Source: an uncultured beta proteobacterium
GTDB taxonomy: Bacteria > Pseudomonadota > Gammaproteobacteria > Burkholderiales > Burkholderiaceae_C
Reading direction: 5' to 3'
Length of the DNA: 64,000 bases
NCBI GenBank assembly: GCA_903864505.1
Contig: CAIPGC010000103.1
Coordinates: 97-64,096, forward strand
Each line of letters opens with the position of its first letter. Positions within the stretch are counted from its first letter, which is position 1. The translations under genes and the position numbers were made by a program. Below are positions 3-40,543 of this stretch, one piece after another. The notes under the pieces were generated by a model. The model saw only the letters and a program-made list of their open reading frames with translations, had not been told where the DNA came from and did not search any database.

Positions 3-1355
3 CGCACCGTCCGCACCCCAGACAACAGCCCCGTGTCGTTCCCCAACGGCATCATGATCGGCACCGCCGTGGGTGCCGGGGCCATCAACCACATCGGCAC
101 GCCTGGCCAGCAAGGCTTTGGCGTGGGCATTGCGCCCAGCATCCCGGCCAACTTTGCCAAGCTGTATGGCACGGATGACCCCTCAGCCGACACATACGGA
201 AATTATCAGTACAGTGATGGCAGCATCATGTGCTACCAGCCCGTAAGCTGTTACAAATACGGCACCGGTGCCAATGGCCTGGCAATCAACAATTGCGACA
301 TCAAGCCGTTCAGCTATTTTGAGAACTCGCTCACGATAGCCAATGCAGCCGGTTACGCCCTGCACCGCACGTTTTATAACAACGGCAGCATCCGTCCGGG
401 CTTCATGCACGACAAATACAAGTGCTCGCTCAACGGGACAATTGCCAGCTCCATCAAAAACGGAGTTGTGCTGACCAGTGCCCAGCGCGGCAGCCTCAGC
501 ACTGCAGTATTTTCAAGCTGCACCGGCAACGGGCAAACGCCATCCAACAACTTTTCCGGGGCGATCGCTGCAGCCAAGAGCCGCGGCAACCAATTCTTCC
601 CACACACGCAATTCATGCGCGCTTGGCTCGCGCTGGTCAGCCTTGCGCACGGTAAAGCATCCACTGGTACAACCTATAACGCTTGGTACGACGCCACAGG
701 CGTAAACAATTTTCCCAAGGGAAACAATAACAACGCGCTCGGGGATATCAATGACGCGACGATTGCATATGTGTACGACGGCAACGGCACCTACCTGGGT
801 TGCGGCAAAACAGGGTCTGCCAACTTTTTCGCCAAGACCACTCATAACGGTCAAGGTAACGGGGTGTGTGACACAAATGGCCTAGTTTGGGACATCGAAC
901 CCTTCGGCATTACGAGCGACGGTGCCAACTTCTACCTGCTAAACACTGCCGCAGACGTCAGCGCCATGACTGGCGGCAACACCCTGGCGACTGATGCGTG
1001 GGGCGCGACCGGCCTTGCCGCGCTGTACACCAGCATCGGTGCCACCTACGGGTCAATGACAGCCAGCTCTACAAACAAAACGTTCGGCGCAGCCGCGCAG
1101 GTGCTGTCTGAGGCCACCAGCGGCACGCCGTGGGCCATGGCTGGTGCGGGCATACCGCTACTCGGTGGCGTTGGGGGCTCCAATCAGTTTGGTAACGATT
1201 ATTTCTATGACGGCCCGCGCCCAAATGAGTTGTGCGTCGTCGGCGGCGCGTATTGGGACAATGGCTCGATCGCCGGGTGCTGGGCCCGGTATTTCAGCTT
1301 TGTCCGTTCCGTCTCGAGCGTTTACTACGGCTTTTCCTCCGCCTGTTATTTGTAG
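3..1355 (+). CDS. DGR target protein, Mtd-like receptor-binding/tail fibre with C-terminal CLec-type variable region (5'-truncated)
   Basis: The frame is open from nt 3 (RTVRTPDNSPV...), so the GTG at 33 is probably not the start. The C-terminus GGAYWDNGSIAGCW...YYGFSSACYL is encoded by the VR. Confidence 0.9.
   Translation, partial: RTVRTPDNSPVSFPNGIMIGTAVGAGAINHIGTPGQQGFGVGIAPSIPANFAKLYGTDDPSADTYGNYQYSDGSIMCYQPVSCYKYGTGANGLAINNCDIKPFSYFENSLTIANAAGYALHRTFYNNGSIRPGFMHDKYKCSLNGTIASSIKNGVVLTSAQRGSLSTAVFSSCTGNGQTPSNNFSGAIAAAKSRGNQFFPHTQFMRAWLALVSLAHGKASTGTTYNAWYDATGVNNFPKGNNNNALGDINDATIAYVYDGNGTYLGCGKTGSANFFAKTTHNGQGNGVCDTNGLVWDIEPFGITSDGANFYLLNTAADVSAMTGGNTLATDAWGATGLAALYTSIGATYGSMTASSTNKTFGAAAQVLSEATSGTPWAMAGAGIPLLGGVGGSNQFGNDYFYDGPRPNELCVVGGAYWDNGSIAGCWARYFSFVRSVSSVYYGFSSACYL
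1229..1344 (+). repeat. DGR variable region (VR), including 3' IMH
   Basis: Identical to 1806-1921 except 14 positions, all A in TR. Confidence 0.97.
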
Positions 1356-1370
1356 GCCTGAGCGATAGCG

Positions 1371-1802
1371 ATGGGCCACCATGACGAAGCCAAACTCGAT
1401 GTCAAGTTCATTGACTTTGCCCGCCAAATGAACCTGTATTTGAATCACTTCCCCAAGCACGAAAAGTATGGTTTGTCGCAGCAAATCAGAAATTCGGCTT
1501 ACGAAGTCTATGGCTATATCGTGGAATCGCAAAAGCGGTATTTAAAGAAAACCTCGCTCACAAGCCTAGACATCGCACACGAACAACTGCGCATGTTCAT
1601 TCGGTTAGCGTTTGAGTTGGGCTATTTCAAGTTCAAGGATGGTGCCCAATGCATTGACAAAGACCACGAAAAAACCGCCACCCACCGTTACCTGGTACTT
1701 AGCCGAATGGTTGACGAACTCGGGCGAATGGTAGGCGGCTGGATACAGGCCGAAAGGGCCAAACAGAATCCCGAGGGCGGGCATAAAAGGGAGGCGTCTT
1801 AA
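1371..1802 (+). CDS. avd: DGR accessory variability determinant (Avd, four-helix bundle)
   Basis: FPKHEKYGLSQQIRN...LRMFIRLA...DELGRMVGGW pattern; lies between VR and TR. Confidence 0.9.
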   Translation: MGHHDEAKLDVKFIDFARQMNLYLNHFPKHEKYGLSQQIRNSAYEVYGYIVESQKRYLKKTSLTSLDIAHEQLRMFIRLAFELGYFKFKDGAQCIDKDHEKTATHRYLVLSRMVDELGRMVGGWIQAERAKQNPEGGHKREAS

Positions 1803-1805
1803 CAT

Positions 1806-2060
1806 GTTGTGCGTCATCAGCGGCGCGAATTGGAACAATGGCTCGATCGCCGGGTGCTGGGCCCGGAATTTCAACAATGTCCGTTCCAACTCGAACGATA
1901 ACTACGGCTTTTCCTCCGACTCAAGGCCTCACGCCGCGCAAGCGGTGAGTGGAATTCAGGGAGGCGCTTTCCTGCGTTTGGCGCAAGCCTTCGCAAAATC
2001 TGCTGCACACCACCATCCTAGTAGGCGCCATGTTGTGTTCGACCGCCTGGAGGTGTCACC
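1806..2060 (+). ncRNA. DGR template repeat (TR 1806-1921) plus TR-RT spacer RNA
   Basis: TR has nine AAY codons in the target frame. The spacer has a hairpin with a GCAA tetraloop at 1928-1949. Confidence 0.92.
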
Positions 2061-3128
2061 ATGAAGCGCGCTGGATTTTTGTTTGAAAAAGCCTTCGCTC
2101 CAGAGTCTTTATACCAAGCCTGGATAGATGCCAGCAAGGGCAAAAACAACAAGCGCGCCACCCTTGAATTTGCCCGCAATCTTGGCCCCAACCTTGACGC
2201 ACTGCACCGCGAATTGCACGCAGGCAATTACCGCCCGCAACCCTACACAGAATTCACGGTGTACGAACCCAAGCAACGCATCATTTACGCCCCCGCGTTC
2301 CGCGACCTGGTGGTGCAGCACGCCATTTACCGCCTGATCTACCCGCTGTTCAACGCCAGCTTTATCGACCAGAGCTTTGCCTGCCGGGTAGCCAAAGGCA
2401 CCCATGCCGCCGCCGACTACGCACAGGCCGCATTGCGCGCCTGCCACCCCGAGAGCTACCTGCTGCAGCTTGACGTGCGCAAATTCTTCTACAGCATCGA
2501 CCGCAGCATTTTGCAAACCCTGATAGAGCGCAAAGTGAAAGACGCCCGCTTTGTGGGCGTGATGATGCAGTTTGCCAACTACGGCCCCGTTGTGGGCATC
2601 CCGATCGGCAACCTGCTCAGCCAGCTTTACGCGCTGATCTACCTCAACCCGCTGGACCACTTCATCAAGCGCACCCTGGGCGCGCAGCACTACTGCCGCT
2701 ATGTGGACGACTTCGTGCTCTTTGGCTGCAGCCGTGCGCAATGTATGGAGGCGCTGGCAGCCATCAAGGCGTTTCTGGCAAGCGCGCTGCACCTGGAGCT
2801 ATCGCGCTACACCCTGCACAAGGTGCGCCGGGGTCTGAACTTTGTGGGCTATCGCACCTGGCGCAGCACCCGCTACCTGCGCAAGCACAGCCTTTACACA
2901 TTCACCAAGTCGGCCTGCAAGGGCAGGCTGCAAAGCGTTATCTCCATCCTGGGCCACGCCCGCCACACGGGCAGCCACGCCCACCTCTTGAAAACCCTGA
3001 AAGGAAAACACCATGACCTCTTTAATCGCCTACCGCAAAGTTATCGACAGCGTTACCACCCACAGCTTGAAGCTGCCCACCGCGCAAGCCAGCCAGCAAG
3101 CCGGGCAAGAGCTTGCCACCCTGCCTGA
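2061..3128 (+). CDS. brt: DGR reverse transcriptase
   Basis: RT motifs: APAFRDLVVQHA, GIPIGNLLSQ, catalytic YVDD, LNFVGY. No maturase or endonuclease extension. Confidence 0.96.
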   Translation: MKRAGFLFEKAFAPESLYQAWIDASKGKNNKRATLEFARNLGPNLDALHRELHAGNYRPQPYTEFTVYEPKQRIIYAPAFRDLVVQHAIYRLIYPLFNASFIDQSFACRVAKGTHAAADYAQAALRACHPESYLLQLDVRKFFYSIDRSILQTLIERKVKDARFVGVMMQFANYGPVVGIPIGNLLSQLYALIYLNPLDHFIKRTLGAQHYCRYVDDFVLFGCSRAQCMEALAAIKAFLASALHLELSRYTLHKVRRGLNFVGYRTWRSTRYLRKHSLYTFTKSACKGRLQSVISILGHARHTGSHAHLLKTLKGKHHDLFNRLPQSYRQRYHPQLEAAHRASQPASRARACHPA

Positions 3129-5436: not shown

Positions 5437-5948
5437 ACTGGTTAGAAACATTGAAGCAGCTTGCACCTACAGTCGCAAGTGCCCTCGGAGGCCCGTTAGC
5501 AGGCGCTGCCGTCACTGCGCTTGGCGGCATCTTCGGGCTGAGTGAACCCAACCAAGACACGATTGCCCGGCTGTTCAAGGACGGTCAACTGTCAGCAGAC
5601 AACCTCGCCGCAATCCGCAAGCTGGAACTGGACTACCAGAACCAAGAGCGTGAGCGCAACTTCAAATACTCAGAGTTGGAGTTTAAGGACAAGGACTCTG
5701 CGCGTCAGATGCAGATGGCGACCCACTCCAAGATGCCTGCCATCCTGACCATCCTAGTCACTGTTGGGTTCTTCGGAATCCTCGGCTTGCTGTTCTTTCA
5801 TCCTGAGTTGAAGGGAAATGAGATTGTGATGTTGATGGTAGGGCAACTGTCGGCTGTGTGGGCCGCGTGCGTATCGTTTTACGTGGGCACAACTTACGGC
5901 TCGGCAAACAAGAACGCCATGTTGGCTAACTCGCAACCGAGTAAATAA
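5433..5948 (+). CDS. Holin, 3TM (GTA-holin-like) family
   Basis: APTVASALGGPLAGAA N-terminus, DKDSARQMQ, two C-terminal TM helices ending FYVGTTYGS. Confidence 0.75.
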   Translation: MNWLETLKQLAPTVASALGGPLAGAAVTALGGIFGLSEPNQDTIARLFKDGQLSADNLAAIRKLELDYQNQERERNFKYSELEFKDKDSARQMQMATHSKMPAILTILVTVGFFGILGLLFFHPELKGNEIVMLMVGQLSAVWAACVSFYVGTTYGSANKNAMLANSQPSK

Positions 5949-8905
5949 TGGCCATCATAAAGATAGAGAACTTCTTTGGCGAACAGCCAAGCACTGCACC
6001 GCGCTCTCTGGGTGATGCTGCCGCTGTGAGTCGGAACCTGTACGCAGGAACGCCTGACTTCAAGCCGCTTCCTGCTGGTTTGAGCAACATCAGAAGCACA
6101 GTCGATCCGTACAACGCAACGATCACCAACCCAAAGTCGCTGTATCGGTTCGATCATGATGCCGCTGGAAATCTTCAGTCAAACTACATGGCCGGGTGGG
6201 TTGTACGCGCCCAGAACATCAGCTACGTCAAGAGCCAACTGAACGACGCAGAGCACGACCGGACCTACTACACGTTCGACAACAACGCTGACATTTCAAA
6301 CAGAGCAACGGTAGGCGCTGCATCGCCATCGGCCGAGTCACCGACATTCGCAGTAGCCCCAAAGGTAATGGCGAACGACGGTGCAGGATGGCTGTACGAC
6401 AACATTCTTGGAGTCCCTGCTCCAACAGTAGCCCCGCGGGTGACCTTGAGTGAAGTGGATGAGTTCTCCAATGAGGATGCTACCGCAGCAGAGTCTACGG
6501 TGACCGTGCAGATTGCAGACGCAATGCGTGAGGCGTTCGTCAAGAACTATTACGGCAACTCAATCCCGATAGCAGCGCCAAACACATCCACGATTGGATG
6601 GGTGAACCATGGCGACCCAACTGTTGCGAACCTCCCGAGTAAGGATGAGCGGTACTCGAACCTGCTGATCCCAATGCCGGGTAATGTCGTTCACCCCGAC
6701 TTTGCGTACCTGATGGATTCATCCTTCAATGGCAACTCTGTCATGTACGCTGGGAATCAGTATTACGCCATAGCTATCCGGCTGTACTCGCCCATGTGGT
6801 TGCCGTATGACGTGGCAATGACCCAGCACTTGACTGCACTGAAGTCGCCTTACGACACCAGCGTTGCATTGTTCGACCCAGCAGAAGTAACCAGCATCGT
6901 GGCATCCTCGCTTTCATACTGGGGGTATGACGTTGGATCACTGACGGACCCGGCCAAGAAGTTCGTGGCAGACGCGATGGCTAAAACAAAGCTGATTCAG
7001 CAAGCTATAGATGCGTCCGTAGTCCCTTCCGCTGCCAAGACAACCACCTACACCTCCGCGCTGAGTACGTTCTTTGGAACGGCTGCGCACCCTGGTTCTG
7101 CAATGGGCGCGATTCTGGATAAGGCAAATTACTACGGGACGGCGGGTATCCCTCCCGTGTCCGCGACAGCGACCAAGTATTACAGCAATGCAGCAGCTTT
7201 CGCCAATCTGGAATCTCAGGTACGCGCCTCGACAACAGCCAAGGGAAACGGGGTTGAGATAAACACTGACATTCTGCGCAACGATCTGTATGAGGACTTC
7301 AAACTCATCATCAACCAGCGCACAGGCTCATGGACTCAGACGGTCCACGGGGACGAAGTTACCTACTATCAGTACCAGGACTTTCTTCCCGGTCTTGTGG
7401 CGGCGTTGGACGAACTGATGGTGCCGTTCAAAAACTTCTTTGATCCGGGAAACCTGTCTACTTTCTCGGAAGCACCCAACACGGACAGGCAGAAGATCGC
7501 CATCCTGCAAGCTGCAATCAAGGATGCTGAAACGTCCCTGAAAGCATTGCAGGCACTGGACGAAGAACTGTACTACCAGATCAAAACGGCAGCTACCAAC
7601 GCCTACAACCTCGGACCCGCAGCACGGATAGCAAGCAAGGGTGTAACCCGCATCAAGGACACCCGCTACTACATCTATACCTATGTGACCAACTGGGGAG
7701 AGGAATCAGCACCTTCACCTGTGAGCAAGATGGTTGAACCAGATCAGAACGACTTGGTATGGATTGAGGCCACTCCACCACCTACAGACAGGAACATTGT
7801 CGGATGGCGAGTCTATCGGTCTGTGTCTGGATCAAGCAACTCTGCTTTTCAGTTGATTTACAACCTGTATGGGCTGACTGCCAACGTGGTGCAGGATGGC
7901 TCTGGTGGATTCGATTACCTGAACATTACGCTGCGCAATGGCGATGGGTTCATGTACTACCAGGACGCTCCAAAACCAAACCTTGACGCCGCGATTCTTG
8001 GTGAAGTGTGCCCATCGATGACATGGGCGGAACCACCTGAGAGACTGGCAGGCCTTGTCGGCATGCCAAACGGCATCATGGCAGGGTTTGTTGACAACTA
8101 TGTGGCATTCTGTGAGCCGTACGTGCCATACGCATGGCCTGTTGAGTATCAGGTGCCAATCGACCACCCTATTGTCGGATTGGGGGTGTTTGGGCAGACG
8201 CTGTTCGTTGGGACACGGGCGAACCCGTACCTAATCTCTGGGTCGGACTCCGCAACCATGTCGGCTGTGAAGCTGCCAGATAACCAAGCCTGTGTAGCCC
8301 GTAGGTCTATTGCATCAGTGTCAGGCGGGATCATGTATGCCTCTCCTGATGGATTGTGCCTTGTCAACGAGTCTGGGGTGAAGGTCATCTCCAAGGGATT
8401 GTGGAGCCGTGAGGACTGGCAGAAAATTGTCCCGTCATCCATCGTCGCTGTTGAGTACGAGGGGATGTATGTCTTTACCTGTGATAACGGGACGAAGGCT
8501 TTTATCCTTGGTGATGGAAAGCTGGTCAGTGTGGACATCGAGGCTTCGGCGTTCTTTGTTGACCGTGTGAATGACGCGCTTTACGCAGCAAGCGATACCA
8601 GTGTCCGCAGGTTGTTTAACGGTGGCGCTCGGATGACGGGCGTGTACAAAACAGGTGTTATCACTCTACCGAAACAAGAACCGCTGGCTTGGGTGCAGGT
8701 TTTCAGTGACGCAACCCTATCAACACCTGTTACTTTAAAGTGGTATGGGGATGGCACGCTCCGCCACACAGCAACTATCACCAGCATTAACCCGCAACGA
8801 CTTCCGCCAGGGCGCTACCTTGAACATGAGATAGAGGTTTCCTCGCAGGCAAACATCACCAGCGTCATCCTCGCAGGTTCAACGCAAGAGCTTCAATCCG
8901 CATGA
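5948..8905 (+). CDS. Tail tubular B / nozzle-like protein (P22 gp10-like) with large internal insert
   Basis: MAIIKIENFFGEQP N-terminus; YIYTYVTNWGEESAPSP and FCEPYVPYAWP motifs of podoviral tail stabilisation proteins. Confidence 0.75.
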   Translation: MAIIKIENFFGEQPSTAPRSLGDAAAVSRNLYAGTPDFKPLPAGLSNIRSTVDPYNATITNPKSLYRFDHDAAGNLQSNYMAGWVVRAQNISYVKSQLNDAEHDRTYYTFDNNADISNRATVGAASPSAESPTFAVAPKVMANDGAGWLYDNILGVPAPTVAPRVTLSEVDEFSNEDATAAESTVTVQIADAMREAFVKNYYGNSIPIAAPNTSTIGWVNHGDPTVANLPSKDERYSNLLIPMPGNVVHPDFAYLMDSSFNGNSVMYAGNQYYAIAIRLYSPMWLPYDVAMTQHLTALKSPYDTSVALFDPAEVTSIVASSLSYWGYDVGSLTDPAKKFVADAMAKTKLIQQAIDASVVPSAAKTTTYTSALSTFFGTAAHPGSAMGAILDKANYYGTAGIPPVSATATKYYSNAAAFANLESQVRASTTAKGNGVEINTDILRNDLYEDFKLIINQRTGSWTQTVHGDEVTYYQYQDFLPGLVAALDELMVPFKNFFDPGNLSTFSEAPNTDRQKIAILQAAIKDAETSLKALQALDEELYYQIKTAATNAYNLGPAARIASKGVTRIKDTRYYIYTYVTNWGEESAPSPVSKMVEPDQNDLVWIEATPPPTDRNIVGWRVYRSVSGSSNSAFQLIYNLYGLTANVVQDGSGGFDYLNITLRNGDGFMYYQDAPKPNLDAAILGEVCPSMTWAEPPERLAGLVGMPNGIMAGFVDNYVAFCEPYVPYAWPVEYQVPIDHPIVGLGVFGQTLFVGTRANPYLISGSDSATMSAVKLPDNQACVARRSIASVSGGIMYASPDGLCLVNESGVKVISKGLWSREDWQKIVPSSIVAVEYEGMYVFTCDNGTKAFILGDGKLVSVDIEASAFFVDRVNDALYAASDTSVRRLFNGGARMTGVYKTGVITLPKQEPLAWVQVFSDATLSTPVTLKWYGDGTLRHTATITSINPQRLPPGRYLEHEIEVSSQANITSVILAGSTQELQSA

Positions 8906-11900
8906 CCGATCGCAAAGTATCCCTCCCGGCTCTACCAAGAGTCACCACAGGAAACCCGGCGCTGGATCGACTTCTACAGGCAATATGTGAGCGATTGGAA
9001 GTGCGCGAAGGTGCGCGTGGGGATGCTCTGGAACAGGTGGTGACGTTCAAGGACTTGGAAGCATCTGGTCTTGCCAATCTGCGCTTCGGTACTCGGGGCA
9101 GGATGAACACAGGGGGGGTGCTTGTCCAACAGGCTGACGGAAGCTACCTGTCCATGCCGATTGACGAGTTTGCCGACAGTATCCGCAAGACAAAGCTGTA
9201 CGGCGATCTGATGAAACGTCTGGATGATCCGACACGGTTTGACGATTACCCTGAAGCCATCAAGAAGATTCTCCTGAACAGCATTGCTGACGAAGCCGCC
9301 AAGCGCGGGGCTGATATTCAACGTCTGGACTACAAGATTCAGAGCGAAGTTGAAAGCCTTGCCTACACGGTTCAGGAAGTGACCGCTGCAGTACAAGGAG
9401 CAGCTTCTGGTGTGAGAGAGGTTACTTTCGCCAGTGCCACAGCGAACCGGGCTACCGCAGGGCAGGTTACACAGATTCAAGCCCGATTGGATGATGTTGG
9501 TGGTGTGACCATCGAAGAATCCATGATTGCCACGGCTGACCGGGTGCAGGGTTTGGCTGGCGAGTACATGGTGAAGATCAACGCTGGTGGGGCAGTTGCA
9601 GGTTTCGGGCTTGCTGCCAGTGAGGACCCACAGGGAAACACAGAATCCTCATTCATTGTCCAAGCTGACAAGTTCGCCATCGTAACGAGTAGTGCTTCCG
9701 AGACTCCGCACATCCCATTCGGCGTCGATGCCAACGGGGTTTATATCAACGGCACAGTGCGTATCAATGCGGCCGGCGCTACCCTGAATGACCTTGCTGC
9801 AGCTACTGGGGTCTATATCTCCTACGACACGCAGTTCTTCAAGTACACATCGACAGGTGCGGTGGTCAACTCAACCCTGACCATGACTGCCAACTTGACG
9901 GGAGATATTCCGCAGACATCGAAGGTCACATGGTCAGTTCTTGGTGGTTATTCCGGCACCCCTCCGGCAGCCGCCACGACAAACAACTGGACGATTGACG
10001 AAAACAAGATGCTGGCGGACTCCGCCTCTTTCCAGATCACTATCGTTGATGACTTCGTAACCTACACAGACACGATCACAGTCGCAAAACTGCGCGATGG
10101 CACAGACTCTATTACCGGGATGCTGACCAACGATCCGCATCAACTCACTGCAACAGACGCTGGCGTGGTTTCATCATTCGCTGGTGCTGTCGGAACGTTC
10201 GATATGTACCGTGGGTTTACCAAGATAACCACCGGAAATGCGATCACCTACAGCGTTTTATCCAACCCAAGCGCATTGGATGTGACGATTAACAGCGCGA
10301 CCGGGGTTTACGCGGTTACCGGTGGTGCGACATGGGCAGCATCGGGGTCAACACCAGCGATAGTGACGTTTCGCGCTAATTACAAAGGCGCGGATCTGGA
10401 TAAGACATTTACCTTATCCAAAGCGATGGGTGGGGTCAAAGGATCTGACGGGTCTAGTGCGCGCACTGTAATACTCTCAATGCCACGGGACGGCGCGGCG
10501 ATCACCTACAACTCTGACAACACGCGCGACAGCACCGTAAGCAGCGACGGGTACATCAGATTCTTCGCTACCAAGGCAAACACCGTGCTTGATGCGTTTT
10601 ATGAGTTTCAGGTGGATGGGTCAACGGTCCAGACTGGAAGCAGTCAAATATACGATTACACGAAACCCAGCGCATACTTTGGATCACCAAAGAAGATCAC
10701 GGTCAACCTGCGTGAAGGCTCTGCAATTGGCGCCGTTGTGGCCTCTGACGTGGTGAATGTGTTTGGCGTCATCAAGGGAAGCTCCGCAATCAACGTCATC
10801 CTGACCAATGAGACGCACACCCTACCGGCAGACTCCAGCGGAACCGTGACCAGCTACGCCAACTCTGGAACTGACATCCGGGTGTATGAAGGCGCAACCG
10901 AGCTTACCTATGATGAATCCGGAACAACGGCTGGAAAGTGGAGGATTGCAACCTCTTCTGGTGGAATTGGAGTAGGCGCCATTTCTGCCGCAAACGTGTC
11001 GGTGTCTAGGGCGATAGTCGGTGTGCACAACACCATGACCTCTGATGCTGCTGTGATCACCTACACGGTATCAGGCAAAACCATGGCGGGCAACAATTTC
11101 TCCATGGTCAAGACGCAGACGTTTGCAAAGGCACGGGCGGGGGTAACTCCGGCAGCCGCCGCAAACGGCAAGCGTGGGTCGCTAATTGCTTACGTCACCG
11201 CGACATCCGAGTTTCAAGTATGGGCAGCAAGAACAGGGGGGCGCGCCCGTTGGTGCGGCGATGGCGCGCTCAATGAGACAAACGCGGCATTTCCTGACAA
11301 CCTAGCCACAAGCACTATCTGCTCCATTGCCGGGGTCAGCGCAAACACTGCCAACCTGACGATCGGTGACACGGTAACCATCACTAGGACGAACCTTACT
11401 CCAAACAGGGTCGCTACCGGGTATTGGGATGGCTATAAATGGGCGCACCCAGGTGTCGTGATTGACGGAAACCTATTGGTATCTGGCAGTGTCGCTGCTG
11501 ATGCTATTGCTGGCGGGACGATCACAGCGGACATAAAACTTGCTGCGACAAAGTATCTTGCCGCTTCTGGTGCCGGTGACGGCGCTATAACTGCGTACCC
11601 AACGGAAAGCACCGGTCCGCTGGCTGGAGCTAGGCCTACTGTGGTTCACATTGTGGCGAACAGCGGGGCCAACGCGATCACTGCGTCAGCGAATAGCACA
11701 GACACTTCTGCGATCATAGGAAACAATGTCGGAGGCGGTCCAGGAATACTGGCTGCATCTACCGGAGGTTCCCCAATCAGGCTGCAGGTCACAAGCGCAC
11801 AGCCAAACCCGGCAGCAGTCCCAGTAAGGGCTGGCGATCTATGTGTAGTTGGATCGGCAGGCAGCGCGACCCTTTACTTCTACAACGGCTCCGCATGGAA

Positions 11901-11919
11901 AACAGTGCTGATGTCCTGA
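8902..11919 (+). CDS. Tail fibre / host-specificity protein with DUF1983-like (TipJ C-terminal) segment
   Basis: GEYMVKINAGGAVAGFGLA...SSFIVQADKFAI motif, followed by beta-rich repeats (LTNDPHQL / LTNETHTL). Confidence 0.75.
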   Translation: MTDRKVSLPALPRVTTGNPALDRLLQAICERLEVREGARGDALEQVVTFKDLEASGLANLRFGTRGRMNTGGVLVQQADGSYLSMPIDEFADSIRKTKLYGDLMKRLDDPTRFDDYPEAIKKILLNSIADEAAKRGADIQRLDYKIQSEVESLAYTVQEVTAAVQGAASGVREVTFASATANRATAGQVTQIQARLDDVGGVTIEESMIATADRVQGLAGEYMVKINAGGAVAGFGLAASEDPQGNTESSFIVQADKFAIVTSSASETPHIPFGVDANGVYINGTVRINAAGATLNDLAAATGVYISYDTQFFKYTSTGAVVNSTLTMTANLTGDIPQTSKVTWSVLGGYSGTPPAAATTNNWTIDENKMLADSASFQITIVDDFVTYTDTITVAKLRDGTDSITGMLTNDPHQLTATDAGVVSSFAGAVGTFDMYRGFTKITTGNAITYSVLSNPSALDVTINSATGVYAVTGGATWAASGSTPAIVTFRANYKGADLDKTFTLSKAMGGVKGSDGSSARTVILSMPRDGAAITYNSDNTRDSTVSSDGYIRFFATKANTVLDAFYEFQVDGSTVQTGSSQIYDYTKPSAYFGSPKKITVNLREGSAIGAVVASDVVNVFGVIKGSSAINVILTNETHTLPADSSGTVTSYANSGTDIRVYEGATELTYDESGTTAGKWRIATSSGGIGVGAISAANVSVSRAIVGVHNTMTSDAAVITYTVSGKTMAGNNFSMVKTQTFAKARAGVTPAAAANGKRGSLIAYVTATSEFQVWAARTGGRARWCGDGALNETNAAFPDNLATSTICSIAGVSANTANLTIGDTVTITRTNLTPNRVATGYWDGYKWAHPGVVIDGNLLVSGSVAADAIAGGTITADIKLAATKYLAASGAGDGAITAYPTESTGPLAGARPTVVHIVANSGANAITASANSTDTSAIIGNNVGGGPGILAASTGGSPIRLQVTSAQPNPAAVPVRAGDLCVVGSAGSATLYFYNGSAWKTVLMS

Positions 11920-13327: not shown

Positions 13328-14557
13328 ATGGGCTTCCCATCACTTGAGAATTTTGCAGATGGCTATCAGGGGTATTTGCAGGGTGAAAAGACTGAACTCG
13401 CTCGCCAACAAGGCTTGAAGGACCAGGCCTACACCAATGAACAGCGCGCTTTTCAGGCAAGCCAACAACGCAGGACGCAAGACGAGCAATCCCGTGCGGA
13501 TCAGTTGCGCCTTGACAATGCTGCGATACCTCTCACACGCACGCAATCACAGGTCACCAATCCGGACAGGGGCTTGTACCTTCCATTGGTTGACGATAAC
13601 GGCGAGCCGTCGGCGGCACAGCTTGAGGTGCGCGGCCCGGAAACCACCAGAAAGGCCACTGAGAGCGAGGTGTATCGCGATATGGCCAAGAACCATCAGA
13701 AGGCTGGTGACGTTGCCAACTACTTGCGCTACACGTCCATGGCGGATAAGTCCGATTGGGACAATTCCGCAAAAGCCATTTCCGAGATTGAGGCAACATC
13801 GACAGGCAAGAACCTGAAAGACGTGATGGCCCAGGTTGGGCAGGTTTTCACCAATGACCCGTATGCAGGGAAGGTGGAGAACATCAAGCAAAACCCGGAT
13901 GGAACGGTTTCGTTTGACGCCATCAACCAGTCGACCAATCAGCGTGTCAAGCGCACTGTCAATTCCACTGCACAGCTATTTGACACCTTGCGCGCGCATT
14001 ACAGCCCGGACTCTTGGGAGGCATTGCGCGCGGCCAAGGCAAAGCACCTGATGGAAATGGAGAACGAGGCGTTCAAGGCTGGAGTCAAGGGCAACGAAGA
14101 CCGCAAGACGGAGGGCGTAAAGAATCAGGGCGCTATTGGGCTTGAGAATATCAAGAGCGGGCACAAACTCAGCCAGATCAAGACTGAAAAAAGCATGGAA
14201 GGCGGAAACGCCATTTCATTGGAGAACGTCAAGCAGCTTGCGCCGCGCCAGCTTTCGACTGGAATGTCTTTGGCCATACCGCAGAAGAACAAGGATGGGT
14301 CGATCACTTATGTGACGGCGGCAGAGAATAAAGATCAAAAGACCGCGCCAGCCGCAACCGATTCACAAATGAGCGCCATCGCTATCGCAAACTATGGAAC
14401 GTTGGACCCTGGAACTGGACGAATGGCAGGCAACCAGAAGACCGGTCGTATTGCTGCCGCAGCGCGCGTCATCCAAAAGGCAAACCCGGGCCTGGACGCA
14501 AACCAAGCCATAGAAGCGGCCGCTCGGGAGATCAATAAACCGGCTGGAGCTAAATAA
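13328..14557 (+). CDS. DNA ejection / internal virion protein
   Basis: Helical low-complexity protein between the gp7-like and large ejection genes. Confidence 0.6.
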   Translation: MGFPSLENFADGYQGYLQGEKTELARQQGLKDQAYTNEQRAFQASQQRRTQDEQSRADQLRLDNAAIPLTRTQSQVTNPDRGLYLPLVDDNGEPSAAQLEVRGPETTRKATESEVYRDMAKNHQKAGDVANYLRYTSMADKSDWDNSAKAISEIEATSTGKNLKDVMAQVGQVFTNDPYAGKVENIKQNPDGTVSFDAINQSTNQRVKRTVNSTAQLFDTLRAHYSPDSWEALRAAKAKHLMEMENEAFKAGVKGNEDRKTEGVKNQGAIGLENIKSGHKLSQIKTEKSMEGGNAISLENVKQLAPRQLSTGMSLAIPQKNKDGSITYVTAAENKDQKTAPAATDSQMSAIAIANYGTLDPGTGRMAGNQKTGRIAAAARVIQKANPGLDANQAIEAAAREINKPAGAK

Positions 14558-17500
14558 TGGCAGGACTGGCGGACATCCGAGTCAATCCGGTTGCCAAAGC
14601 TGCGCCAGCGGCTACGGGCGTGAGGCCTATCGTTATTCCGTCAGAGATCGACCAGTACCGCGATCCGGCGCCAGCGGACGTTCCGCAATCATCGCTTGCA
14701 GACTTCCTTCCATCATTCTCAAGCAGCACACCAGAAGTCGTCACGACAGATGTTCCGAGCGGACCATCGCTTGCTGACAGCATTGGCTCTGCCATGAATG
14801 GCGTTCGGGATTGGGCCACTGGCGCACGCATTGATGGAGAAGCCAAAAGCGGCAGTGTTTTAGAGACTGCTCGCCCGGTTCCCGTTGACCCATTGGACCA
14901 GACTGGCGGAGCGCCATTCAATGCCGACACGGTAAAGGCCGTCACGATGCAGCTTGCAGGCATGACGCCGCAAGAACGATTGAAAGCTGGATCTATACCG
15001 GGCGCCTATGGGACGCTTGCAAGGAAAGTTACCGCGAGGATCGATGCAAATGCAGGATCACCGGTCGACAGAGTGATTGGCGGGCAATCTCTCGAAGAGC
15101 GCACGCGGTTCTATTTGAACCAGGGCGCAGGGCCAGAGACTGCACAAAACCTTGCTGCACAAGATATTCATGGAGGGTACGATGCGAGATCGCTTGACCA
15201 GGCAAGGCCAACATCAGGAGATGCGCAGGCCATGGCGGATGGCAGGGCAGAAGGATTGCCACTGCAGAAGTACGGCGTTGCGACACGCGGGGTCATTGGT
15301 GGTGTTGAGGGGTTGAAACAAGGCGGTCTCGGTGTTGCGGCTGCCGCGCTTCGACTCGTTGGAGACGACAAGACGGCCGAAGAATTGGAGAAATCTGCGT
15401 TCAAGTCAAAGTCCAAAACGGATGCGATGAACGAACTCACTGCCATGCGCAGGAAGGCGCAGGAGGCGGGCATCGTTTCAAGCGGACCCGGGATCATGGA
15501 TGCCACCTACCTGGAAGACATGGCAACCGGTGGCGTTGCATCGGCGGCGCAGAATATTCCGGGCATGGCGGCTGGAGCGGCAACGGCGATTGCCACCAAG
15601 AACCCAATGTTGGGCGGCCGGGTAGCCATGGGGTTGATGACGACGCAAGCCTTCGGAAGCTCATTCATTGACGGACGCCAGCGCGGATACACGCCAGGGC
15701 ATGCTGCTTCGTATGCCGGGGCGATGGCTGCGTTTGAATTCCTTGGAGAGCGCTACGGCCTGATTCCAGCGGCGATGAATGCATTCAAAGCCAAGGCAGG
15801 ACAGATGCCTTTGGCAGAGATCCCAGCGTTTATGGAGCGATTCATCGGCAAGGCCGAGGAGAAAGGGCTTTTCACCAAGTCAGCAGGATCCCTCATTCGC
15901 GAGCAGCTTGGCGAGCAAGTTGGCGAACAGTTGACTGGCGCTGGCCAATACCTCATTGAAGGCTCTGCATTGGGCATGGACAAGCCGATGAGCGTTCGCG
16001 ACTTCATTGGTAACGCTGTAGACACGTCAGTTCAAACCCTCATTGCGACTGGGTTGCTGCAGGGCGGAGGAAGGGCGGGGCGCGCGGCGATCGACTCCAT
16101 GAAGAGCGGTACGGTTACAAAGCCCGCCAAAGAGCAGGCGACCTTGGCTACGTCTCCCGGACTTCCTGAAACGAAACAGGCCACAACTGAAACGACAACG
16201 GCAGTTCCTGCAACGGAATCGCCAATACCTGCAACGCAAAAGACAGAAACCGCTCCAGCAGATGCAGCAGTACCAGCGGAAGACGTTCTTGGATCCGTTG
16301 ATCCTGATTCTCCAGTTCGCCAGGACATCGAGCAGGCAGCCCACGAAGCCGCAACGAGCCCGCTGAACGATCTTCCTGAGCCGACACAGGCGCAGAAGGA
16401 GGCAGGCAACTACAAGGTCGGCAGAGTCAAGCTGCACGGCTTGGACATCAGCATTGAGAACCCACGCGGATCTGAGCGCAGCGGCACCAGCCCGGACGGC
16501 ACCGAGTGGAGCAATACGCTCGCTGCCCACTATGGCTATGTCCGCGGAACAGAGGGGAATGACGGTGACCACGTAGACACGTTCATTGGCCCGAACCCGG
16601 ACAGCGAGAAGGTGTTTGTGGTCGACCAGGTGAATGAAGACGGAAGTTTTGATGAGCACAAGGTATTGCTCGGAGCGGACTCACTACAGCAAGCCGATGA
16701 TCTTTACCACGCGAACTACCACGCAGGGTGGACCGGCCGCGGCGCCATCACCGAGATGCCGCTTGACCAGTTCAAGCAGTGGGTGAAAGATGGCCCGAAG
16801 ACCGAGCCAGTAGGCAAGTTGCCAAAACCACAGCAAGCCCCGGTTCAATCCGGGGTTTCTACTTCTGATACAAAACAGCCTGTAGCGCCCGTACAGCAAG
16901 CGCAGCCCGCTACTAAACCAGTAGCGGAAAAGCCGCTTTCCATAGGCACCACGCCAAACTCTTCTGACCCGATCACCGTGAAAGACGGAGTTGTGCACAT
17001 CGGTAAGTACCCGGCGCAGAACTTCGAGACTGGCGACGATGTAACCGTTCCAGAAGGCGCTACCCGGGCGCAGATCAAGCAAGCGCTCAAGGATGCCGGA
17101 GCAATCGGTAACCATCAGAAAGTTTTCAACGTCGACGAACCGCAGGAGAACGTCAATGGCAACCAAGCCGATCAAACCAAGCAAGCAGAACCGCAACAAC
17201 AAGAAGCGCCAGCAGCCCCAGTAGCCGTTCACTACGGCAGGGACAATGTTCCTTTGTCCGAAGGTGGCAAGCCATTCACAACACGCAAAGAAGCTGGAGA
17301 CGCCCGCAGGCTGCAGCCGCACATGCGCGTTGTGTCGGTTAAAGGCGGGCATGCTCTTGCAGAAAAAACCGCAGCCCAACTGGCCGCAGAAGAGAAAGCA
17401 GCCAAGCGCCTACGCAATGCCGGCGCCAGTGAAGCCAATGCACCAATCCCCGCCCATGCATTCATTGCTGACGCTGGCGGATTGAGCAAAGATGCAATGT

Positions 17501-18522
17501 CTGACGCCGGGTTCGATCGGAACGTGAAGATCAGAACCAAGTGGCTGTTTGGTGCACAAGGCAGGGGAATGACAATCGAGCAGGCGACCGAGCGCCTGAA
17601 GGAAGCTGGCTATCTGAAGCAAGGCGATGGCCAGAAAGAAGCGCTGGACCTGATTCGCAAGAGTGTCACCAACCCGCAGTACACGCCGGAAGGTTGGGAG
17701 AGGCTTGCAGAAGCCGAGCAGCAGACCCAATATGCGGATCACCTTGCGGCGCAGCAAGAGGCTGCACAAGACGACGATTACGATCCATTTGTGTCCGATG
17801 GCGCGACAAGTTTTGAGGCAGACGATCTTGATGTCTCTGGCCATGCGAAAGCAAGCAAAGAGATTCAACTGGAAGTTGCAGCGCTGCATGCACAAATGGA
17901 GTCGCTTGGACTTGACCCGGACGCCGTAAAGTACGACATTGCTACACAGTACCCGAATTACACCGATCAAGAGTTTTATGAGCATGTCAAATCAGAATCA
18001 CAAGCCGCCCTTGAAGCCCATTCCGCTGGACGCCAAGCCGAGCAAGGAGGCGATAGAAATACTGGCAAAGATGTACGCCAACCGAGCGACCCGGGAACGG
18101 GCCAACGAGAAGAAGGCCCAAGCCAAGTAACCAAGACCCCCTCAACCGAGGGGGTTTCTACTTCTGGCCCAGAGATTAATCGAAGTGCGTTTGACCGCGG
18201 CGATGCAGTAGACCGAGCATGGCGCGCATCCATCGGCGACCGGGTTGGGCGCTATGGGGTGGCTGTTGATTCCGATAACGGCCGCGTTGTGCTGGTCAAA
18301 GGCAATTCCACAGTTACCTTCAAGTTCGACAAGAACGATGCGGACGCCAGATCCAAAGCGGTAGCCGACGCCAAGACGTGGGCGCGCGAGAACAAAGAGA
18401 TTCCAGCCGAACAGGCAGCCCATCAGCCAGAGCCCGTTGCTGAAGAAAAACCAACCGCCCTCATTGAACTGCGCAAGCGCGAGAGCGTATTGAAGGCGCT
18501 TCGTAAATGTCTGGAGTCGTGA
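14557..18522 (+). CDS. Large ejection protein with polyvalent-protein InPase (inorganic-pyrophosphatase-like) domain
   Basis: PTQAQKEAGNYK...ISIENPRGSERSG...HYGYVRGTEGNDGDHVDTFIG...FDEHKVLLG at ~16380-16800; central hydrophobic helices. Confidence 0.8.
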   Translation: MAGLADIRVNPVAKAAPAATGVRPIVIPSEIDQYRDPAPADVPQSSLADFLPSFSSSTPEVVTTDVPSGPSLADSIGSAMNGVRDWATGARIDGEAKSGSVLETARPVPVDPLDQTGGAPFNADTVKAVTMQLAGMTPQERLKAGSIPGAYGTLARKVTARIDANAGSPVDRVIGGQSLEERTRFYLNQGAGPETAQNLAAQDIHGGYDARSLDQARPTSGDAQAMADGRAEGLPLQKYGVATRGVIGGVEGLKQGGLGVAAAALRLVGDDKTAEELEKSAFKSKSKTDAMNELTAMRRKAQEAGIVSSGPGIMDATYLEDMATGGVASAAQNIPGMAAGAATAIATKNPMLGGRVAMGLMTTQAFGSSFIDGRQRGYTPGHAASYAGAMAAFEFLGERYGLIPAAMNAFKAKAGQMPLAEIPAFMERFIGKAEEKGLFTKSAGSLIREQLGEQVGEQLTGAGQYLIEGSALGMDKPMSVRDFIGNAVDTSVQTLIATGLLQGGGRAGRAAIDSMKSGTVTKPAKEQATLATSPGLPETKQATTETTTAVPATESPIPATQKTETAPADAAVPAEDVLGSVDPDSPVRQDIEQAAHEAATSPLNDLPEPTQAQKEAGNYKVGRVKLHGLDISIENPRGSERSGTSPDGTEWSNTLAAHYGYVRGTEGNDGDHVDTFIGPNPDSEKVFVVDQVNEDGSFDEHKVLLGADSLQQADDLYHANYHAGWTGRGAITEMPLDQFKQWVKDGPKTEPVGKLPKPQQAPVQSGVSTSDTKQPVAPVQQAQPATKPVAEKPLSIGTTPNSSDPITVKDGVVHIGKYPAQNFETGDDVTVPEGATRAQIKQALKDAGAIGNHQKVFNVDEPQENVNGNQADQTKQAEPQQQEAPAAPVAVHYGRDNVPLSEGGKPFTTRKEAGDARRLQPHMRVVSVKGGHALAEKTAAQLAAEEKAAKRLRNAGASEANAPIPAHAFIADAGGLSKDAMSDAGFDRNVKIRTKWLFGAQGRGMTIEQATERLKEAGYLKQGDGQKEALDLIRKSVTNPQYTPEGWERLAEAEQQTQYADHLAAQQEAAQDDDYDPFVSDGATSFEADDLDVSGHAKASKEIQLEVAALHAQMESLGLDPDAVKYDIATQYPNYTDQEFYEHVKSESQAALEAHSAGRQAEQGGDRNTGKDVRQPSDPGTGQREEGPSQVTKTPSTEGVSTSGPEINRSAFDRGDAVDRAWRASIGDRVGRYGVAVDSDNGRVVLVKGNSTVTFKFDKNDADARSKAVADAKTWARENKEIPAEQAAHQPEPVAEEKPTALIELRKRESVLKALRKCLES

Positions 18523-23935: not shown

Positions 23936-24132
23936 ACCCGCTTGTGCTTGCAGTCCAAGGCCTAGACTTTGGATTCGCGGCCATTGCCGTACTCGGTTTC
24001 ATTGCCTACGTCGCACAAAACACCGATCTGAACGGACCGGACGACGAAGAGCCCGACCGAATCCAAACACAAAACAACGCATTGCTGCAGATCATTGCAG
24101 CATTCGTAGCATCAGGAGCACTCGATGGGTAG
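23932..24132 (+). CDS. 66-aa hypothetical protein (module gene 7)
   Basis: ATGA-coupled; overlaps the start of the giant ORF. Confidence 0.6.
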   Translation: MNPLVLAVQGLDFGFAAIAVLGFIAYVAQNTDLNGPDDEEPDRIQTQNNALLQIIAAFVASGALDG

Positions 24133-27100
24133 CCTTACAGCTTGCTTGAAAAAGGCCGGAACAAGCCTGCGCGCAGAAGACAAGTCGGCCATCTTGGCGC
24201 TGTCTCGCCAGTACCGCTCAGAAGGGTTGAGCCCGAACGACGCAGCGATGAAGGCGATCGACACGCAACTCTCTGCCGTTGGGAAAATGATCGAGCAGGA
24301 GCAGGCACCCAAAAAAGTGGATCTGTTTGGCGAAGCTCCGAATGCATCGCAACAGGCCGCCGAAGACTTGCGCCAGAAGCAAAAGAAGAAGGAGCAAGCG
24401 CAGCGTGACAGGGCGCCGACAGCCAACGACTTTGATCTTGGCATGGTGGACCAGAAGACCGGAGACGAAGTAGCGCCTGGTCAAGCCGAGATAGCCGTGA
24501 ATGAGGATGAAGCCAAGGCCAAAGCCGACCTGATGAATGCGCTGGCGGACCTTGGAAGTCTGCTATCGGCACCAGGGCGCATGAACATTGCTCCAGAGCA
24601 GGAGCAGAAGCTGCTTCCCATCCTGACAAGGTTGTTCGATGCAGCGTTCCGCCTTGGGTACACCAAGTTCAAGGACGCGGCGAAGTTTGCTCTGGATCAG
24701 ATCAAGGCAGCACTGGGTCAGGAAACTGCAAACTCCATCGACCTGAATCACCTTCAAGGTGCGTACATCGCTATGTCTGGAGGGAAGACTGGCGCCGACA
24801 ACATTCGCACGGTCAGCACCATCGAGAGCAAATCAGAGGTTGAAAACCACACGGCGCAAACCGATAATCAACGCAAGGAGCAACTGAATGTACCAAGTGC
24901 CAACGCCAGTGTGGAACGACATAGCCCGCAGCCAGCCACTGAGCCAGCCGTGGGCCAAGCTGTTTCGGATGAACTACGAGCAACTGGTGGAGAACCTTCC
25001 CAAGCTGGTGGACGAACCGATAGAGGCGCTGGGAGCGGACAACTCGACGGTGTTGGCTTATCGTCTGGTGGCGCCGCTACTGCAAGAGAACGAGGCGATC
25101 AGCGCGTACATCGAAGAGACGGAGAACTTGAGCTTGCGAGCATCACTTCCGGAGATCAATTCGGTGAACGAGGCAGTGATGTTGGCATCCGAGGAATACC
25201 GCCTGAACCAATCTCAACAAAACAAGTTAGAGAAACTGCTGAATCGTTTGATGACCGAATAATCAAAGGCAGGGAGCAGAAGGCTGCGGCATCCATCAAG
25301 CCCATTGATGGCGACCTTCAGAACATTCGCGACACCCTCCCGCAACTTCTACCAGCACAACAGGACGACGTTCACAAGGCAGAGACGCGCTTTGCCAAGC
25401 CCAATGGCTTTGGCATGCTGTTTACCAACGGGACCGGAACAGGAAAGACTTTCAGCGGGCTTGGCATCATCAAGCGCTTCGAACTGAAGGGCAAGAAGAA
25501 CGCCATCATTCTGGCGCCTGATGACAAGATAGCTGCAGACTGGATCAAGGCCGGAAAGCTGCTGGGCCTGGACATCACCAAGCTGGCAGACACCAAGGAC
25601 TCCGGAAAAGGCATCGTCATCACGACCTATGCCAACTTCGGAGCCAACGACAAGACGGCATCGCGGCAATGGGATCTGGTTGTTGCCGACGAGGCGCACT
25701 CGCTTATGCAGGAAGCGCATGGGACTCCAACCGGGTACCTGCACAACCTCAGAGCCATTACCTACCATCCGGATGGCGTGCACACACGCCACAGCATGCT
25801 GCACCGCGAAGAGATCGAGCGCAGCGCCTTCCTGCACAGGGAGATCAAGGCGAACAACAAGATCATGAGCAACGACGACACCATGGATGCCATGGTTTCA
25901 TCGCTGCGCAGTGAGAATGAAAAGCTGGAAGCAGAGGTATCCAAGATCGACGCCAAGTTGCGCGCGGATCTGGACGCCTTGAAAGACGAGGTGCACAACC
26001 GCCAAAGCACGCGCCCGCGCCTGGTGGCATTGTCTGCAACCCCATTCGCCTACGAGAAGACGATTGACTGGGCCAATGGCTACCTGTTTGAGTACAACGA
26101 TGGCCAGCCTTCGGAAGAGCGCGAATTCAGAGGGTACAACTCCGGGTCGAACCGTGATCGGTACTTCATGCAGCACTTTGGCTACACGATGAGGTACAAC
26201 AAGCTCACCGAGCCCGATGGCAGCAAGGTGGACCGCGGGTTACTGCAGAGAAACTGGAACGCCAACCTCAAGAAGGCGGGATCTTTGTCCGGCCGCATGT
26301 TGGACGTAGTTCCTGACTACGACCGCAGGTTTGTAACGGTCGACTCTGCCATTGGCCATCGAATCGACGAAGCCCTTGAGTGGATCTCCAAGCAGCGCCA
26401 GGACGCACCCAAGGGAGACGAAGGTTTCTCAATGCTCAGTGAGGTGATCAACGACAAGTTCAAATACTTGCAAAAGCGTTACTTGCTGGAAGCGATCAAG
26501 GCGACCGAGGTGATTCCGATCGTCAAGCAGCACCTTGCACTCAATCGCAAAGTGGTGGTGTTCCACGACTACAAAAAGGGCGGAGGATTCAACCCGTTCT
26601 CCATCAGCATCGGTACGGCGAAGAGCGAAGAACCGAACCAGCAAGCACGCATCGAGAGCTTCAGAAAAGCTGTGACCGCCTTCAACACCGAGTTCAAAGA
26701 CTTGGTTGAAGCGCCACTCGGAGACATGGATTCACCCATCGAAGTGTTTGCGCGCGAACTGCCTCAGACCATGTTCATCAATGGGGATGAGAAAAAGAGC
26801 GACTTGCTCCAGCGATACGAGAAGTTTCAGGACGACGCCAGCGGCCCCCAAGTGATGCTGGTTCAATCGGCCAAGAACAAAGGCTGGAGCGGGCACGACA
26901 CCACCGGGAAACATCAGCGTGTCTTGATCAACCTGGGGCAACCCACGGCGCCCACGCTGGCGATCCAGCAGGAAGGCCGGATCTACCGCACCGGGCAGGC
27001 ATCAGACGCGATCATGCGCTACCTGAACACCGGAACCAATTGGGAGCGCTGGACATTCGCATCCACCATTGCCGGCCGCGCGAGCACCGCGGAGAACCTT

Positions 27101-40541: not shown

Positions 40542-40543
40542 GA

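Follow-up and report, generated by a model that had tools for sequence, protein, structure and literature searches.

A BPP-1-type diversity-generating retroelement with adenine-confined natural variation in a temperate GP4/F116-like podophage

Known systems close to the element reported here include the diversity-generating retroelement (DGR) of Bordetella phage BPP-1 and the DGR of a Thermus prophage. In BPP-1, the spacer (Sp) RNA provides a priming adenosine, Sp A56, followed by an essential G57, at the end of a duplex between the template repeat (TR) and Sp, next to TR G117, the base templated first; the RNA also forms an avd:Sp duplex termed "cPRT Stop", followed by a stem-loop and adenosines (bioRxiv 10.1101/2023.10.23.563531). 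On the DNA side, the published rule for the hairpin/cruciform is a 4-nt GRNA loop situated 4 to 34 bp downstream of the variable region (VR) (PMC3240598). The roles of residues R74 and I181 in the reverse transcriptase (RT) have been described, and the [I/V/L]GxxxSQ motif defined as opposed to QGxxxSP (PMC7826257). The Thermus prophage DGR diversifies TaqVP, a variable protein whose C-type-lectin (CLec) fold is of the formylglycine-generating enzyme (FGE) type (PMC6328139). The targets of viral DGRs are mostly tail proteins (PMC8144416), and Roux et al. (2021, PMC8144416), surveying more than 30,000 DGRs, described phage clades in which tail proteins are diversified via C-Lec VRs, with broad activity across time series. 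Here we describe a DGR found at one end of a 64,000-nt stretch of DNA, referred to as the window, from an assembly of an uncultured beta proteobacterium (GCA_903864505.1). The window corresponds to positions 97 to 64096 of contig CAIPGC010000103.1 (C103; 64,274 bp), which was binned in a metagenome-assembled genome (MAG) of 332 contigs and 4.04 Mb that is 94% complete.

The cassette is ordered as target gene with VR at its 3' end, avd, TR, a 139-nt spacer, the RT gene, small open reading frames (ORFs) and an endolysin gene. VR (1229-1344, + strand) and TR (1806-1921, +) form a 116-nt direct repeat without gaps, sharing 88% identity; VR ends 8 nt upstream of the target stop codon and TR starts 3 nt past the avd stop codon. 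By script count, all 14 mismatches between the two copies fall on TR adenines (six A>G, seven A>T and one A>C), and the hypergeometric probability that 14 random mismatches would all land on the 24 adenines among 116 positions is 4.8e-12. In the VR reading frame, 12 of the TR adenines occupy codon position 1 and the other 12 codon position 2. Nine AAY codons are present, and a stop codon cannot be reached by any adenine substitution. An earlier inspection of the letters alone (the sequence-only reading) had reported the gap-free repeat, the 14 adenine-borne mismatches, the confinement of all 24 adenines to codon positions 1 and 2, the nine AAY codons and the exclusion of stops, and the recount agreed on each point. 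No second VR was identified anywhere in the MAG.

Seven further contigs of the same phage, obtained from different samples and with two assembly pipelines, were compared with the window, giving eight sequences aligned over up to 3,477 nt from the target gene through the ORF after the RT gene. Each of the seven assemblies differed from the window at between 4 and 15 positions, all of them in VR at TR-adenine sites, with no differences in TR and none elsewhere outside VR. Among the eight sequences, 16 VR columns were variable, every one a TR-adenine position, and 20 of the 24 adenine sites were substituted in at least one sequence; the observed variable sites extend from 1239 to 1327. At least seven distinct VR alleles were recovered at the DNA level, against zero background substitutions in the approximately 3.3 kb surrounding VR. 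The exact 456-amino-acid (aa) target protein and 14 relatives fell into one 90% cluster, and in the 12 protein variants nearest to the window's target all but three differences lay within the last 42 residues. As VR differences are confined to adenine sites while TR and the flanks are unchanged, the DGR is active in nature, and we are highly confident that it is an active canonical BPP-1-type element. Its assignment to this class, proposed in the sequence-only reading, is borne out by gene order, repeat, RT, Avd and cis elements. The same reading had called the cassette probably functional, had named adenine-restricted polymorphism in mapped reads as a check and had listed a lack of VR variation among related genomes or reads as contrary evidence. 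Adenine-restricted variation is present in all seven assemblies, none of which shows any change or disruption in avd, TR, spacer or RT.

Two other explanations of the VR differences were considered. The cassette could be a relic that is no longer homing, its VR/TR differences being fossils of past activity; past and present activity are indistinguishable from one genome, and this phage has an imperfect hairpin 3' of VR. Such a relic is already contradicted by seven different VRs, diverging at TR-adenine sites only, on copies otherwise identical over 3.3 kb, by the 12 distinct protein variants in the close cluster and by the intact, identical avd, TR, spacer and RT in every copy, and we consider it very improbable. 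Slightly less credible still is that the variation between assemblies is assembly or consensus error caused by the VR/TR repeat. Contigs frequently break near the cassette and metagenome assemblers can yield mosaic paths across variable regions, but errors would neither keep to TR-adenine positions nor spare TR, they would tend to put TR bases into VR, and the non-TR bases are consistently common to two assembly pipelines.

Two further features of the assemblies concern VR and its surroundings. Between assemblies, VR is shuffled in halves on either side of a 28-nt A-poor core, with one 5' half common to L002 and L007 and one 3' half common to the window and L006. Recombination among variants is one possible source, the phage having its own RecT and RecE genes; partial conversion and mosaic assembly are others. 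In addition, many assemblies of the phage break less than about 100 nt from the target gene or within avd (contig ends of L001, L003, L008 and C103), and the junction of the circular contig C103 itself lies 80 nt upstream of the target gene. These breaks are consistent with assembly fragmentation from VR microdiversity together with the VR/TR repeat.

The VR 3' boundary is formed by the block CGGCTTTTCCTCCGCCT (1328-1344, +), a 17-nt A-free sequence that lies beyond the last varying position (1327) and differs from TR at a single base, C1342, where TR has A1919 (GCCT in VR and GACT in TR). VR/TR homology stops 2 nt past this mismatch, which is one base from the predicted cDNA start. By its likeness to the initiation of mutagenic homing (IMH) element of BPP-1 (PMC3240598), the block may have an IMH-like function. 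The A1919/C1342 difference is the same in all eight assemblies of the phage and the GACT/GCCT difference recurs in 56 of 60 related loci, which argues that it is a fixed boundary marker and not a product of mutagenesis; the best reading is a fixed base at the boundary by which donor and recipient differ, corresponding to IMH versus IMH*. With the marker fixed, 13 mismatches are attributable to mutagenesis and at most 23 adenines are mutable, corresponding to 7.0e13 DNA variants and 3.9e13 protein variants. The sequence-only reading had counted 14 adenine mismatches and a space of roughly 4^23 to 4^24 variants; 13 mutagenic mismatches and 23 mutable adenines stand, and the 14th mismatch, at the 24th adenine, is the fixed boundary base.

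A hairpin/cruciform is located 3' of VR at 1355-1377 (+), with the arrangement GGCCTG-A-GC-GATA-GC-GA-TGGGCC and a GRNA-type loop, GATA, at 1364-1367. It begins 10 bp past VR, in agreement with the published rule for loop and distance, and overlaps both the target stop codon and the avd ATG. Single-sequence folding had suggested that no hairpin was present 3' of VR, a result overturned by family comparison, in which a bipartite hairpin was found in 55 of 56 loci, comprising a covarying outer stem of 5 to 9 bp and an inner GC-GRNA-GC, with almost all loops of the GRNA type. It is possible, though we hold it with considerable doubt, that the single fixed base (GACT in TR, GCCT in VR) together with this bipartite GC-GRNA-GC hairpin distinguishes donor from recipient in the target family. 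If true, this would amount to a minimal target-recognition module in place of the (GC)14 plus 21-bp IMH/IMH* system of BPP-1. The one-base boundary difference offers a small, testable lead on the one-way flow of information from TR to VR in DGRs.

For the RNA elements, 39 to 43 family loci were aligned, the BPP-1 architecture was imposed on the alignment and pairs were counted over 39 loci. Under this architecture 85.4% of cells were paired, compared with 40 to 48% when the partners were slid; double-change cells numbered 222 versus 37 to 66 in the slid controls, and the covariation score was 0.468 versus at most 0.104. None of 500 shuffles attained the observed values. The avd:Sp duplex, the counterpart of the BPP-1 cPRT Stop, pairs a 5' strand, AGGGAGGCGTCTT (1788-1800, +), with a 3' strand, GAGGCGCTTTCCT (1961-1973, +), the latter beginning 2 nt past the candidate priming adenosine, as in BPP-1. 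In this duplex 94.7% of cells were paired across the 39 loci, with compensatory changes at 9 of the 13 pairs. A local spacer hairpin, GGAGG/UUUCC, proposed by RNAalifold was rejected in favor of the long-range avd:Sp duplex, which shows the compensatory changes.

The spacer region (1922-2060, +; 139 nt) carries invariant A-GGG, GAAAT and GTAG motifs. Just 3' of TR, a hairpin with a GCAA tetraloop (1927-1952, +), for which RNAalifold gave 20 to 24 compensatory changes per pair, is a candidate Avd-binding stem-loop by analogy with BPP-1. The TR:Sp primer strand TTCA (1955-1959, +) pairs with 1921-1924 and ends at A1958, which is followed by the invariant G1959. The U1921-A1958 pair was present in 35 of 39 loci, the adjoining pairs showed 14 to 19 double changes and the A-G dinucleotide was invariant. 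From the correspondence with BPP-1, A1958 is the putative priming adenosine and C1920 the predicted first templated base. A further stem-loop with a GCAA loop (1974-1998, +) consists of a hairpin at 1974-1994 and the conserved adenosines 1996-1998, which are candidates for A-minor contacts; its two helices (helices 4 and 5) were 89 to 92% paired with compensatory changes, and AAAT was nearly invariant. A string, AAGGGAGGCG / CAGGGAGGCG, occurs both at the avd 3' end (1787-1796) and just past the candidate priming adenosine (1957-1966). As it is duplicated, either copy could pair with 1965-1973, giving two mutually exclusive RNA conformations, one a local hairpin and the other the long-range avd:Sp duplex, which recall the resting and the active state described for BPP-1. 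No Rfam match was found within the window, and the covariation-supported avd-TR-Sp architecture could therefore seed a curated RNA family.

The avd gene (accessory variability determinant; 1371-1802, +) encodes 143 aa and matches Pfam bAvd (PF22296) at E = 1.2e-14 and 55.1 bits (cut-off, 40 bits) and the PHROG family "Avd protein of DGR" at E = 2.5e-22; phmmer identified no relative of Avd with a solved structure. The RT gene (2061-3128, +) encodes 355 aa and matches the PHROG RT at E = 6e-101, with RVT_1 as its only Pfam match and no maturase (GIIM) domain. Alignment placed equivalents of bRT R74 (in EPKQR) and I181 (in GIPIGNLLSQ), the [I/V/L]GxxxSQ signature and YVDD in the sequence. Both ORFs are intact, as the sequence-only reading had noted. 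The RT is the only RVT_1 gene in the MAG, which hence offers no outgroup RT, and the enzyme was placed by ranked similarity.

On that ranking the closest solved relative of the RT was the 328-aa bRT (PDB 8ub7-8ube; E = 5.8e-54), whereas group II intron- and retron-type RTs reached 1e-19 at most. Full-length matches in cultured phages belonged to known DGR carriers, namely Bise (55% identity), VP585, BPP-1 (35.5%), ANMV-1 and crAss-like phages. Plasmid group II intron RTs shared 23 to 29% identity over the fingers-palm half only, about half of the RT. An identity as a group II intron or retron RT was accordingly rejected: bRT is far closer, a maturase domain is lacking and the group II matches cover only about half the length. 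The RT thus groups with DGR RTs, and clustering with intron or retron enzymes, which the sequence-only reading had named as contrary evidence, was not seen. Public gene calls across the cassette were irregular. On several copies of the phage an 86-aa "protein" consists of TR plus spacer in frame (1804-2064, +), and on some contigs a 227-aa antisense ORF (2109-2792, -) is substituted for the RT gene; both have the look of artefacts that gene callers typically produce on DGR cassettes.

The target gene (1-1355, +; 456 aa) starts 15 nt upstream of the window, at position 81 of C103. No Pfam match was found in the protein. A first full-length AlphaFold2 (AF2) model, built from a deep alignment of shallow diversity, was poor (pLDDT 43). 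A second, of the C-terminal 355 aa, used a diverse alignment of 91 sequences with 30 to 79% identity and reached pLDDT 94.8 and pTM 0.93. Foldseek with this model placed TaqVP (5vf4) on top (E = 1e-12, TM 0.61), followed by Mtd variants (E = 0.03 to 0.1), TvpA and formylglycine-generating enzymes, and the sequence profile of the target matched 5vf4 at E = 3.7e-8 over a region covering VR. The C-terminal part of approximately 355 aa is therefore predicted to adopt an FGE-type CLec fold, and the target is modeled as a CLec variable protein closest to TaqVP; the CLec fold anticipated by the sequence-only reading was recovered by structure prediction, with TaqVP, Mtd and TvpA as the best solved matches.

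The gene neighborhood points to the phage tail. The target gene lies two genes past gp77, a GP4-type fibre-tail adaptor, with a 213-aa ORF between, and directly before avd; together with the GP4-type fibre I gp80, the adaptor gives tail-module synteny upstream of the target. From fold and synteny, the target is probably a receptor-binding fibre protein. Alternatively, the diversified protein could serve another role, as an accessory adhesin, a decoration protein or a surface protein of the lysogen acting in superinfection exclusion or cell-cell interaction. A Pfam tail-fibre domain was not found in it, TaqVP-type CLec proteins can be monomeric with unknown ligands (PMC6328139), and 8902-11919 encodes a further large tail protein, which has a tail-tip fibre domain. 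The position two genes past gp77 and directly before avd, as for mtd in BPP-1, speaks against such a role, as do the neighbors of the target in a viral structure library, mostly tail-fibre or tail-collar proteins, and the predominance of tail proteins among viral DGR targets (PMC8144416). We regard the alternative as rather unlikely and retain the receptor-binding fibre protein as the preferred role.

A number of observations count against the interpretation of the locus as an active canonical BPP-1-type DGR with a receptor-binding target. The polymorphism evidence is at the level of assemblies, and a VR haplotype taken from an assembly may combine pieces of a mixed population. Only two VR sites separate L004 from L006, and the whole 3' half of the window's VR is that of L006; since the assemblies may be mosaic, homing tract lengths cannot be inferred from these haplotypes. 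L002 and L003 have identical VRs and may be a single sample assembled twice. The boundary block 1328-1344 is not composed of G/C only, whereas BPP-1 has (GC)14. The stem of the 1355-1377 hairpin is interrupted and not significant as a single-sequence fold, and the hairpin survey took the best complement per locus, with some resulting bias. Sequence similarity to Mtd is marginal (hhalign E = 0.11 over 38 aa), and the receptor-binding role is supported by fold and gene neighborhood only.

The DGR is carried by a complete, circular, temperate GP4/F116-like podophage from fresh water. As the contig ends repeat its first 141 bp, the genome is circular and complete at approximately 64,133 bp. Its terminase, portal and capsid proteins are F116/CF418P1/933W-like, the major capsid protein sharing 49% identity with that of Achromobacter phage CF418P1 and about 32% with that of F116. 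In addition to gp80 and gp77, an SU10-type adaptor and an M15 endolysin are encoded. A lysogeny and recombination module (34344-35309, -; 38826-41293, -; 43515-44213, -) comprises a tyrosine integrase, a RecE-like exonuclease, RecT and an S24 (LexA/CI-like) repressor, and the structural, integrase, repressor and recombination genes together identify a temperate podophage. No tRNA gene was found, nor any att site, spacer or duplicate by which the phage contig could be tied to the remainder of the MAG, where nothing matched it.

A 3,391-aa ORF (24125-34300, +) matches PHROG giant phage proteins (DNA methyltransferase-like, DarB-like antirestriction) over residues of approximately 200 to 1200 and is probably an ejected anti-restriction or internal virion protein. 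This ORF had raised the possibility of an N4-like phage, and of an N4-type virion RNA polymerase as its product. Both were rejected, as the ORF matches DarB-like, methyltransferase and helicase families and the phage resembles F116/CF418P1/933W in its capsid, portal and terminase. Likely podophage ejection proteins are encoded at 14557-18522 (+; 1,321 aa, with a lysozyme/endolysin-like domain at the centre) and at 5948-8905 (+; 985 aa, a homologue of an "internal virion protein").

Relatives of the target are numerous, with more than 1,700 in the protein collection; IMG/VR contributes at least 435 loci, and species-representative genomes contribute 66. The nearest genome matches are to Rhodoferax MAGs (74, 68, 64 and 59%), followed by other Burkholderiales and Rhodocyclales; some of these matches are embedded in contigs of 150 to 300 kb and are thus prophages. 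Remoter relatives occur in isolates of Psychrobacter, Spongiibacter and Halopseudomonas. Among cultured phages no close homologue of the target was identified (31% identity at most), and a literature search for DGRs and Rhodoferax found nothing. As the nearest matches are from Rhodoferax and other Burkholderiales, the host is likely a Rhodoferax-like Burkholderiales bacterium. The sequence-only reading had held that target and host could not be identified. That no longer applies to the target, which is modeled as a TaqVP-like CLec protein and belongs to a GP4-like fibre module, or to the order of the likely host; what stands of the statement is that both are only partly identifiable.

In 60 non-redundant related loci with their own VR/TR pair, 837 of 879 mismatches were at TR adenines, and the TR-to-RT spacer clustered at 120 to 160 nt. 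Psychrobacter sp. 72-O-c carries three target-family loci. Two of them (L034 and L035, on NZ_CAJHBI010000012.1) are about 35 kb apart and have identical VR/TR pairs, which suggests duplicated or tandem prophages, each with a DGR; the third (L026) is on another contig.

The following mechanism is proposed, largely by analogy with BPP-1. A transcript covering the avd 3' end, TR and the 139-nt spacer would fold in a nested manner, with the avd:spacer duplex around the TR:spacer template-primer duplex, itself around the tetraloop hairpin. An RT-Avd complex would prime cDNA synthesis at spacer A1958, starting from TR C1920, and the RT would copy TR faithfully while misincorporating opposite adenines. 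The cDNA would then take the place of VR in the 3'-terminal part of the tail-fibre-module gene, possibly guided by the A-free block 1328-1344 and the GRNA-loop hairpin 1355-1377. The predicted outcome is up to approximately 4e13 variants of the ligand-binding face of the CLec domain, which is most likely the receptor-binding tip and may let the phage follow changes in the host surface.

The element contributes little as a discovery, since diversification of CLec tail proteins by phage DGRs has been recognised from BPP-1 onward and tens of thousands of such elements are on record. What recommends it is its unusual cleanness as a natural example: a complete 64-kb genome turned up repeatedly in related samples, with at least 7 DNA and 12 protein VR alleles, and the phage could be used to measure in situ turnover of a DGR. 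For a distant, abundant environmental family, it could likewise demonstrate conservation, with covariation, of the RNA elements that structural work defined in BPP-1 (the priming adenosine, TR:Sp and the avd:Sp stop duplex) and of the GRNA hairpin.

Compared with BPP-1, the annotated record of which has the order mtd-avd-TR-brt, the locus has the same gene order, a tail-fibre gene upstream, lysis genes downstream and, in the target gene, a VR placed at the very 3' end. TR lies directly past avd, and the spacer is 139 nt compared with 144 nt from annotated TR to brt. The RTs share 35.5% identity over 86% of the length, with the R74, I181, SQ and YxDD positions kept. The candidate priming A is followed by G in a GTGG...TCAG context (Sp A56/G57 in BPP-1), the avd:Sp duplex starts 2 nt past it and a GRNA-loop hairpin is present 3' of VR. 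Both systems have approximately 23 mutable adenines and reside in temperate podophages. Unlike in BPP-1, the target is not Mtd-like in sequence, with just 38 aa of VR aligning (E = 0.11), and the beta-prism and beta-sandwich trimerisation domains were not identified. Donor and recipient differ here by one fixed A/C base and in BPP-1 by several IMH/IMH* differences, the stem of the hairpin is in two parts (6 + 2 bp, interrupted by an internal loop) versus eight continuous GC pairs, and the backbone is that of a 64-kb GP4/F116/CF418P1-like phage versus the 42.5-kb Rauchvirus. Of the defining BPP-1-type features examined, only the exact (GC)14 plus 21-bp IMH form is not reproduced.

The likeness to TaqVP of the Thermus aquaticus prophage (5VF4) lies in the FGE-type CLec fold with inserts, the C-terminal VR of about 40 aa and the BPP-1-like DGR organisation. 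The two proteins share only about 15 to 16% identity, and the window's protein has an extra N-terminal region of about 95 aa and is part of a podophage fibre module. The closest cassette in a cultured phage is that of Pseudomonas phage Bise (OR683401), with an RT that is 55% identical, avd-TR-RT DNA that is 69% identical over 26% of the query and a target that is homologous by profile (hhalign probability 96%, E = 4e-9). Bise differs in being a 38-kb phage with a 364-aa target that lacks the N-terminal extension, and its DGR is not annotated in the record. No categorical difference separates the element from the phage clades of Roux et al. 2021: it too is phage encoded, with a tail-protein target, a C-Lec VR and VR alleles that differ between samples.

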